Counted from the first letter of the stretch, positions 35,054 through 35,225 are shown. The stretch is DNA of 64,000 nucleotides from Escherichia coli (GCF_030013595.1 NZ_CP122768.1), one strand, 5' to 3'. The notes: a model not told the origin generated them from the letters alone. Translations and numbers: made by a program.

Positions 35054-35225
35054 GAATACTCTCCTGTCTGACATTGACAAAATAATGACAATTGAAAATT
35101 CGTTTTCGTCTGTTTTTGAGCATATTTGTAATTTATGTTCAAAAACACGACACGCATCACTAATTTGATCATTTGTGTCATTTAAATTGACCAAAGACGA
35201 CAAAATTAAACAGGACAAGACAAAT

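Follow-up and report, generated by a model that had tools for sequence, protein, structure and literature searches.

The divergent spacer of the variant yih cassette of Escherichia coli, a probable orthologue of the repressor-bound K-12 yihU-yihV control region

The 64,000-nucleotide stretch of Escherichia coli DNA analysed here (NZ_CP122768.1; hereafter the window) has the same 'short' yih cassette as E. coli Nissle 1917. The spacer between its divergently transcribed reductase operon and kinase-regulator pair is probably the orthologue of the K-12 yihU-yihV (squU-squV) control region, bound by a repressor whose primary site would lie in a conserved core with auxiliary boxes around it. Region, regulator and the interaction between them are already known from publication and, for that reason, the preliminary description, which read repeated TGACA-type motifs in the spacer as a candidate DeoR operator, adds little as a finding.

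The start codons of the two flanking genes set the limits of the spacer exactly where the preliminary description had drawn them for an AT-rich divergent interval (Table 1); its G+C content is 30.8%, against 50.0% for the whole 64-kb window. On the minus strand, the genes leading up to the spacer are yihY, yihX, an aldose 1-epimerase gene, two successive MFS transporter genes, a Zn-dependent dehydrogenase gene, a class I aldolase gene (YihT-like) and the reductase gene (YihU-like). On the plus strand, the spacer is followed by the genes for a PfkB kinase (YihV-like) and a DeoR/GlpR regulator (YihW-like), with yihN, yihM, yihL, typA and glnA beyond them. This is the context of the CsqR/YihW-controlled yihU-yihV regions, with divergent reductase and kinase genes and a csqR-type DeoR gene 3' of the kinase gene; the CsqR-bound spacer of K-12, 167 bp long compared with 172 bp in the window, occupies the same position between genes of the SLA-reductase and SF-kinase types, followed by the DeoR gene. 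Unlike its K-12 counterpart, the window operon lacks yihS, yihQ, yihO and yihP and instead has the Zn-dependent dehydrogenase, two other MFS transporters and a different epimerase. Two GTG-start ORFs that run into the spacer (34175-35254 on the minus strand and 35175-36122 on the plus strand) were discarded as mechanical artefacts because nearly all of the 76 orthologous loci use ATG, aligned at query residue 1. Within the reductase Shine-Dalgarno sequence, CTCTCCTG shows no variation in the variant group and next to none across all orthologues.

Although published as the 'short cassette yihTUVW', the locus forms an eight-gene unit in the window (28392-36950), in which the genes for the Zn-dependent dehydrogenase, the two MFS transporters and the aldose 1-epimerase come after the aldolase gene on the same strand, with gaps of at most 98 bp or a short overlap. 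The same eight-gene set is present in Nissle 1917. The paper describing the short cassette makes no mention of its dehydrogenase, transporter and epimerase genes (PMC12608037). In five further genera, the dehydrogenase and both MFS transporters go with the variant cluster; the epimerase lies outside the stretch compared there.

Table 1 Features of the divergent spacer and its surroundings (window coordinates)
Feature	Position	Strand	Sequence	Remarks
Reductase gene (YihU-like), start codon	35053 (codon 35053-35051)	minus	ATG	
Kinase gene (PfkB, YihV-like), start codon	35226	plus	ATG	
Divergent spacer, reductase operon (minus) / kinase-DeoR pair (plus)	35054-35225			172 bp
Shine-Dalgarno sequence of reductase gene	35059-35066	minus	CAGGAGAG	read from sequence
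Motifs 1 and 2	35068-35098		three TGACA pentamers (TGTCA on minus strand)	predicted 5' UTR of reductase operon
Segment homologous to K-12 CsqR/YihW footprint	35097-35137			ungapped alignment; variant-group conservation 0.93
Conserved core	35107-35187			~80 bp; common to long and variant cassettes of Enterobacterales, largely also Dongshaea marina
Inverted repeat, left arm	35111-35124		TGTTTTTGAGCATA	holds predicted reductase -10
Direct repeat, copy A	35115-35135	plus	TTTGAGCATATTTGTAATTTA	contains TATTTGTAATTT block
Reductase promoter, predicted -10	35124 to 35119	minus	TATGCT	inside left inverted-repeat arm
Inverted repeat, right arm	35134-35147		TATGTTCAAAAACA	
CRP-like site	35143-35164		AAACACGACACGCATCACTAAT	centre 35153.5; homologous to K-12 site
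Direct repeat, copy B	35164-35184	plus	TTTGATCATTTGTGTCATTTA	overlaps kinase promoter -10; holds motif 3 TGTCA
Kinase promoter, predicted -10	35182-35187 or 35183-35188	plus	TTAAAT or TAAATT	alignment
Regulator promoter	36099-36126	plus	TCATTTTTGTCACTTTATGCGTAAAATG	inside 3' end of kinase gene

Binding of the regulator to this spacer has been published. Purified Nissle YihW shifts its own yihU/V fragment in EMSA, the shift being complete at 30 °C and poor at 37 °C (Kaznadzey et al. 2025, PMC12608037). The degenerate primers of that study match the window at 34991 and 35255, and the 265-bp Nissle EMSA fragment is 100% identical to window 34991-35255. Gene order is the same in Nissle, and its YihW is identical to the window regulator at 261 of 262 residues, the one change being A217T. 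The EMSA put forward as a check in the preliminary description had therefore already been carried out with a positive outcome, and the claim that the cognate DeoR regulator binds the spacer is borne out on identical DNA. K-12 CsqR also bound the Nissle fragment and Nissle YihW the K-12 fragment (PMC12608037), so the operator must lie in sequence common to the two.

The regulator itself agrees with this cross-binding. The DeoR gene assigned to 36162-36950 in the preliminary description was confirmed: its product has 262 aa and is 72% identical to K-12 CsqR, with the DeoR/GlpR model PRK10906 as its best NCBIfam match, below the model cut-off. The two proteins show 100% identity over residues 33-63, a stretch expected to contain the recognition helix; the window regulator and CsqR are thus expected to recognise identical bases, which the EMSA cross-binding also implies. 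This CsqR orthologue further keeps unchanged the residues predicted in PMC10991401 to line the ligand pocket.

Matches with at least 95% identity to 501 bp around the spacer were found in 1327 of 5426 complete E. coli genomes (one outlier at 71%), about a quarter of them, and the carriers include Nissle 1917, ST131 and O104:H4; genomes of the K-12 type have a diverged version of the region. Of the 1327 matches, two are plasmid-borne and not chromosomal.

Sulfoquinovose only partly broke up the complexes between YihW and DNA in EMSA and, unlike the K-12 system, the Nissle cassette was not induced by sulfoquinovose by RNA-seq or qRT-PCR (PMC12608037). The functional label 'Csq' is therefore doubtful for the variant, whose physiological inducer is probably not sulfoquinovose itself. 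Since binding is weak at 37 °C and the Nissle cluster is not induced by sulfoquinovose, YihW repression may also be of little weight in vivo. The proposal that the spacer is the control point of the variant cluster thus stands as far as a divergent control region bound by its regulator is concerned, and is weakened by the lack of sulfoquinovose induction and the poor binding at 37 °C.

The position of the operator can be approached through K-12, where YihW ChIP-exo gave one dominant peak (S/N 168; NC_000913.2 4071641-4071681), much stronger than any other YihW site in the genome (PMC8464067), and where the yihU-yihV spacer was essentially the single target in gSELEX (PMC8249747). We converted these coordinates using an offset between NC_000913.2 and NC_000913.3 of 1976 ±1 at the locus, obtained from a start site given in U00096.2 coordinates (PMC5816610) and from the annotated gene starts. 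The peak then corresponds to 9618-9658 of the K-12 locus (L003), ATGCTTTGCTTGTCTGTTTTTGATCGTATTTGTAATTTATC, a version mapping good to ±2 bp. Ungapped alignment (window = L003 + 25479) carries it to 35097-35137, where 30 of the 41 bases are identical between window and K-12, including 27 of 30 in the right part. The window spacer is homologous to the K-12 spacer over the segment bound in vivo by CsqR, and also at the CRP-like site and a -10 element of TAAAAT type. This segment is most likely the primary operator region, an assignment that rests on homology to one ChIP-exo peak mapped to within ±2 bp. The accessible literature, which does not extend to the primary CsqR description, defines no CsqR box or exact operator. 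A TGTCnnTTTTTG box occurring in both K-12 targets was tried as the operator and downgraded to an auxiliary role because two of its four copies in the K-12 spacer make up the CRP-like palindrome and the ChIP-exo peak does not include the perfect copy, at L003 9595. At L003 9603, K-12 has TTTGTCATTTAT, a near copy of the core TTTGTAATTTAT at L003 9646.

Comparison across species singled out the same part of the spacer. A scan restricted to one genome per species gave 79 loci, from more than 30 genera, in which a CsqR-type regulator is present, and three more distant loci were added to these; 76 sequences, with the window and the E. coli reference loci counted in, have divergent reductase and kinase genes 152-351 bp apart. 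Regulators at least 81% identical to that of the window occur at ten loci, and the full variant gene set is present at eight of these, in Escherichia, Citrobacter, Phytobacter, Erwinia typographi, Trabulsiella and Enterobacter sp. 10-1. The core, with the consensus TGTCTGTTTTTGAnCrTATTTGTAATTTATGnTCAAAAA followed by a TGACA-N4/5-TCAC element and then a TAAAAT hexamer, is kept almost base for base between flanking proteins that are only 62-90% identical. Averaged over the variant group, identity to the window reaches 0.89 in the core and 0.93 in the ChIP-exo-homologous segment. The three distant loci, from Dongshaea marina (Aeromonadales) and two metagenomic contigs, keep TGATnnTATTTGT(A/T)(A/G)TTT, TGACA-N5-TCAC and TAAAAT. 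The core 24-mer is single-copy in most loci (76 of the 83 sequences scanned) and is found once in the window.

The core stays beside the regulator gene even where only a 3' remnant of the kinase gene is left (L008) or no kinase gene can be recognised (L079). At the former locus, from an Enterobacteriaceae MAG (5660-6010), the kinase gene is deleted and the core is directly upstream of a variant-type regulator gene, next to yihO/P/Q-like genes; the latter, from Citrobacter sp. NCU1 (5240-5500), has a divergent arrangement without a recognisable kinase gene. In long-type spacers, TGT(C/A)A boxes are separated from the core TGTAA by 30-32, 41-44, 50-54 and 59-64 bp, distances near whole helical turns (R=0.65 at a 10.5-bp period, a value that is not a probability as the sequences are related). 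Extra copies of TTTGTMATTTAT with up to three mismatches were also counted in 21 genera (52 observed, 28 expected); this enrichment was set aside as evidence, being modest, and only the conserved position is informative.

Both divergent promoters are predicted within the core. On the reductase side, TATGCT was taken as the -10 element because every genus has T1, A2 and T6 and the middle bases differ (TACGAT, TATGAT, TAATAT and TATCAT elsewhere), and the K-12 yihU-side start at -62/-63 determined by primer extension (PMC5816610) fits this element. On the kinase side, nearly all other aligned genera have TAAAAT at the -10 position, and the K-12 yihV start at -25/-27 (PMC5816610) falls 6-7 nt downstream of the homologous hexamer. 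A simple consensus scan of 34950-35330 returned no canonical sigma-70 promoter. The CRP-like site between the two promoters matches TGTGA-N6-TCACA at six of ten positions in the window, seven in K-12 and eight in L091 and Budvicia-type loci, and CRP binding to the K-12 yihU/V spacer has been reported (PMC5816610). Its left half-site is weaker in the window than in K-12; this half (CACGA, 35146-35150) is at its weakest in E. coli variant spacers. With the K-12 starts transferred by ungapped alignment, the centre of the CRP-like site would be ~40.5 bp from both predicted starts, compared with ~41.5 bp upstream of the start expected for class II CRP promoters. These starts are predicted at ~35112 for the leftward and ~35194 for the rightward promoter. 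The TTAAAT/TAAATT -10 of the E. coli variant, together with the weak CRP-like half-site, may contribute to the reportedly low, uninducible expression in Nissle.

Divergent sugar-catabolic promoters with a common central CRP site and a local repressor are a general type of architecture. The window resembles them in its AT-rich spacer of ~170 bp, back-to-back promoters, CRP-like site ~40 bp from the predicted starts and local repressor gene, with CRP dependence and starts of the variant spacer inferred from K-12 data.

Two repeats overlie these promoter elements. The arms of the inverted repeat are complementary at 13 of 14 positions (P≈0.03), and the right arm is conserved in most Enterobacterales loci, with Budvicia, Leminorella, L089, L090 and L091 as exceptions. 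The two copies of the 21-bp direct repeat are identical at 17 positions (P≈0.007). Copy B, over the kinase -10, is specific to the variant group including the window; K-12 is without it, and by hand comparison long-type spacers match it at only 6 of 21 positions. The copies are 49 bp apart, or ~4.7 helical turns, which is not clean phasing. The spacer therefore has the repeated half-sites of DeoR/GlpR-type multi-site regions, in both dyad and direct symmetry and above chance. The TATTTGTAATTT block (35123-35134) is conserved in nearly all loci and, on sequence grounds, is the best operator candidate because it is explained by neither the promoters nor CRP.

Conservation of the core as a whole could owe much to the two promoters and CRP rather than to the repressor. 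An extreme form of this reading, that the core is kept only for two divergent class II CRP promoters, with the repressor bound elsewhere or non-specifically and the EMSA shifts reflecting low-specificity oligomerisation on AT-rich DNA, strikes us as highly improbable. It would account for the need for 16-48 fold protein:DNA and for complexes that stay in the wells (PMC12608037, PMC8006165), for the weak binding at 37 °C and for a CRP-like site equidistant from both -10 elements. It is at odds with a ChIP-exo signal (S/N 168) that is the strongest for YihW in the genome, with the essentially single gSELEX target (PMC8249747) and with the position of TATTTGTAATTT at -13 to -26 of the reductase promoter, a stretch where sequence conservation is required neither by RNA polymerase nor for a class II CRP promoter.

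In the arrangement that we favour, the spacer would act as a repressor-bound platform of ~80 bp (35107-35187), with the leftward reductase -10, the central CRP-like site and the rightward kinase -10. Binding of YihW, a GlpR/DeoR-type protein, to this spacer is given by the published EMSA on identical DNA. Its primary site would, by homology, most likely be the block around TTGAGCATATTTGTAATTTAT (35116-35136), over the reductase -10 and promoter spacer. From there the repressor probably oligomerises onto weaker boxes of TGT(C/A)A type, for which copy B (35164-35184), the inverted TGACA boxes at 35069-35090 and the TGTCAC at 36106 are proposed. Such an assembly would shut both divergent promoters and allow autoregulation.

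The three motifs quoted in the preliminary description are indeed present (ctgacattgacaa at 35068-35080, tgacaattgaaa at 35086-35097 and tgtgtcatttaaattgacc at 35174-35192), with TGACA at 35069, 35075 and 35086 and TGTCA at 35176. In 5000 dinucleotide-preserving shuffles of the spacer, 1.36 copies of TGACA/TGTCA were expected against four observed (P=0.03), and 2.48 copies of GACA/TGTC against nine observed (P=0.0002). Over both strands of the 64-kb window TGACA occurs 93 times, or ~0.25 per 172 bp, so its density in the spacer is ~16-fold higher, and the three copies within 22 bp form the tightest cluster in the 64-kb listing. The repetition is real and, with the AT-rich composition allowed for, moderately above chance. 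Two other roles for these pentamers were rejected: TTGACA at 35074-35079 as a -35 element has no TAnnnT hexamer 16-18 bp downstream, in line with the absence of a sigma-70 promoter from 34950-35330 in the consensus scan, and by inspection the cluster matches the CRP consensus TGTGA-N6-TCACA at five of ten positions at most.

Their conservation is uneven. Across the variant group, motif 1 has a mean identity of 0.62 to the window, motif 2 of 0.68 and motif 3 of 0.74; motifs 1 and 2 are for the most part confined to Escherichia and Citrobacter, and the only bases in them that never change within the variant group are ACAA (35088-35091) and TG (35075-35076). The TGTCAT box of motif 3, which adjoins the kinase -10, is conserved in that group only. 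Among six Escherichia sequences, the few polymorphisms fall in the quoted motifs and at two other variable positions, with none in the left part of the core (35107-35147).

These data make it rather unlikely that the motifs (35068-35098 and 35174-35192) are the principal operator half-sites and the core only promoter DNA. Besides the narrow distribution of motifs 1 and 2 and the strain polymorphisms inside them, both lie downstream of the predicted reductase start, near the Shine-Dalgarno sequence, and their orientation is opposite to that of the long-type boxes: left of the core, K-12 has a direct TGTCA-N5-TGTCA tandem and the window three inverted TGACA pentamers. The perfect K-12 tandem (L003 9595-9609) is itself left outside the borders of the ChIP-exo peak. 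A principal role for TGACA would agree with the local enrichment of TGACA/TGTCA and GACA, the fixed distance and helical phase of the long-type tandem, the 13-mer TGTCACTTTTTGT common to both K-12 fragments bound by CsqR, the TGTCAC box at the regulator promoter in most aligned genera of both groups, and the conservation of TGTCAT in motif 3 and of ACAA in motif 2 in the variant group. As the main operator, motifs 1 and 2 thus give way to the ChIP-exo-homologous segment, which reaches into the core and had not been flagged in the preliminary description. The operator claim survives in part, weakened by the poor conservation of motifs 1 and 2 and a K-12 footprint elsewhere, and upheld by the conserved TGTCAT and ACAA.

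At the other extreme, the TGACA cluster might have no regulatory role, being lineage-specific drift in an AT-rich 5' UTR with all regulation in the core (promoters, CRP and one repressor site). We consider this improbable: although the composition-corrected enrichment of the pentamer gives only P=0.03 and Phytobacter, Erwinia, Trabulsiella and Enterobacter sp. 10-1 carry the same cluster without the pentamers, the enrichment of GACA is stronger (P=0.0002), and two of the three pentamers are close to four and five helical turns from the core element. Their centres are, from the coordinates, 58, 52 and 41 bp from the core TGTAA, the latter two in phase and the first out of phase. CsqR binding along the probe is reportedly cooperative (PMC8006165), which fits weak flanking sites and again argues against drift. 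That the pentamers are not accounted for at the RNA level is, for its part, compatible with drift. In folding, the two predicted 5' UTRs did no better than shuffled versions (z=+0.40 and +1.28) and an Rfam search gave only a sub-threshold, spurious snoRNA match, and on this basis we rejected an RNA-level explanation.

Under the assignment of the primary site to the core, motifs 1 and 2 are candidate repressor sites of low affinity and at most auxiliary. A TGTCA-like pentamer is plausibly part of the recognition element, because TGTCAT and ACAA are conserved in the variant group and the TGTCA boxes of long-type spacers are conserved and phased. The TGACA pentamers are then probably degenerate copies of an element best kept as TTGTAA in the core, as suggested by the near copy in K-12, the phased TGT(C/A)A boxes of long-type spacers and the conserved TGTCAC at the regulator promoter.

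The promoter of the regulator gene itself is the second published repressor-binding region, with EMSA on yihV/W fragments (PMC12608037); the K-12 yihW transcription start is at -27/-28 (PMC5816610). In the window, the TGTCAC box (36106) is just upstream of the -10 of this promoter. TTTTTGTCACTTTATGCGTAAAAT is conserved there at synonymous positions of kinase codons in most genera of both groups, and the box is missing from four long-type loci (Yersinia, Hafnia and two of Serratia).

The closest characterised paralogue of the window regulator is GlpR of the glp regulon, to whose family the sub-threshold match to PRK10906 points. Multiple sites and an oligomeric repressor are common to the GlpR and window systems. 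The arms of the inverted repeat (TATGTTCAAAAA and TATGCTCAAAAA) resemble GlpR-type half-sites, which is a lead only. GlpR operators are abutting palindromes of 20 bp; unlike these, the window arms are everted and 9 bp apart. The 10-mer ATGTTCAAAA is also present in the glpT-glpA control region, a match that is not significant alone. A minor K-12 YihW ChIP-exo peak (S/N 13.7) is found just upstream of glpA, beside a GlpR-like half-site (L087 470-497), and another (S/N 8.2) upstream of ssuE (L088 197-229), the gene that opens the operon for the use of sulfonate sulfur. The half-site similarity and these minor peaks are suggestive only.

The variant cluster is presently described as an inactive remnant of sulfoquinovose catabolism. 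The sulfonate-binding residues known from the K-12 and Salmonella enzymes are all kept in the variant enzymes (33263-36122): K27, N109 and R138 of YihV, R253 of YihT, and N174 and S178 of YihU. A sulfonated sugar is probably still handled by the cluster and would perhaps enter via the dehydrogenase rather than the YihS isomerase. With the position of the repressor known, clean derepressed and reporter strains could be built for a search for the real substrate and inducer.

As a tentative and somewhat doubtful joint reading, a nucleoprotein platform of ~80 bp, of which the spacer may be one instance and whose boxes are rearranged in the variant, would control an uncharacterised sulfosugar pathway with an inducer other than sulfoquinovose. 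The platform may be kept at nearly every base from Aeromonadales to Enterobacteriaceae, with phased TGT(C/A)A boxes around the TATTTGTAATTT core, and its rearrangement may have consisted of inversion of the left boxes and the presence, over the kinase promoter, of another 21-bp copy. The pathway may comprise the Zn-dependent dehydrogenase, two MFS transporters and the epimerase, together with the kinase, the aldolase and the reductase, each of which still has its sulfonate pocket.

The dehydrogenase may be a recurring alternative entry module. At greater evolutionary distance, too, a Zn-dependent dehydrogenase gene is found beside the reductase gene, in L091 (1-2975), next to a class II aldolase gene, and in L058 and L066, together with both MFS transporters and with no match to a YihT-type aldolase.
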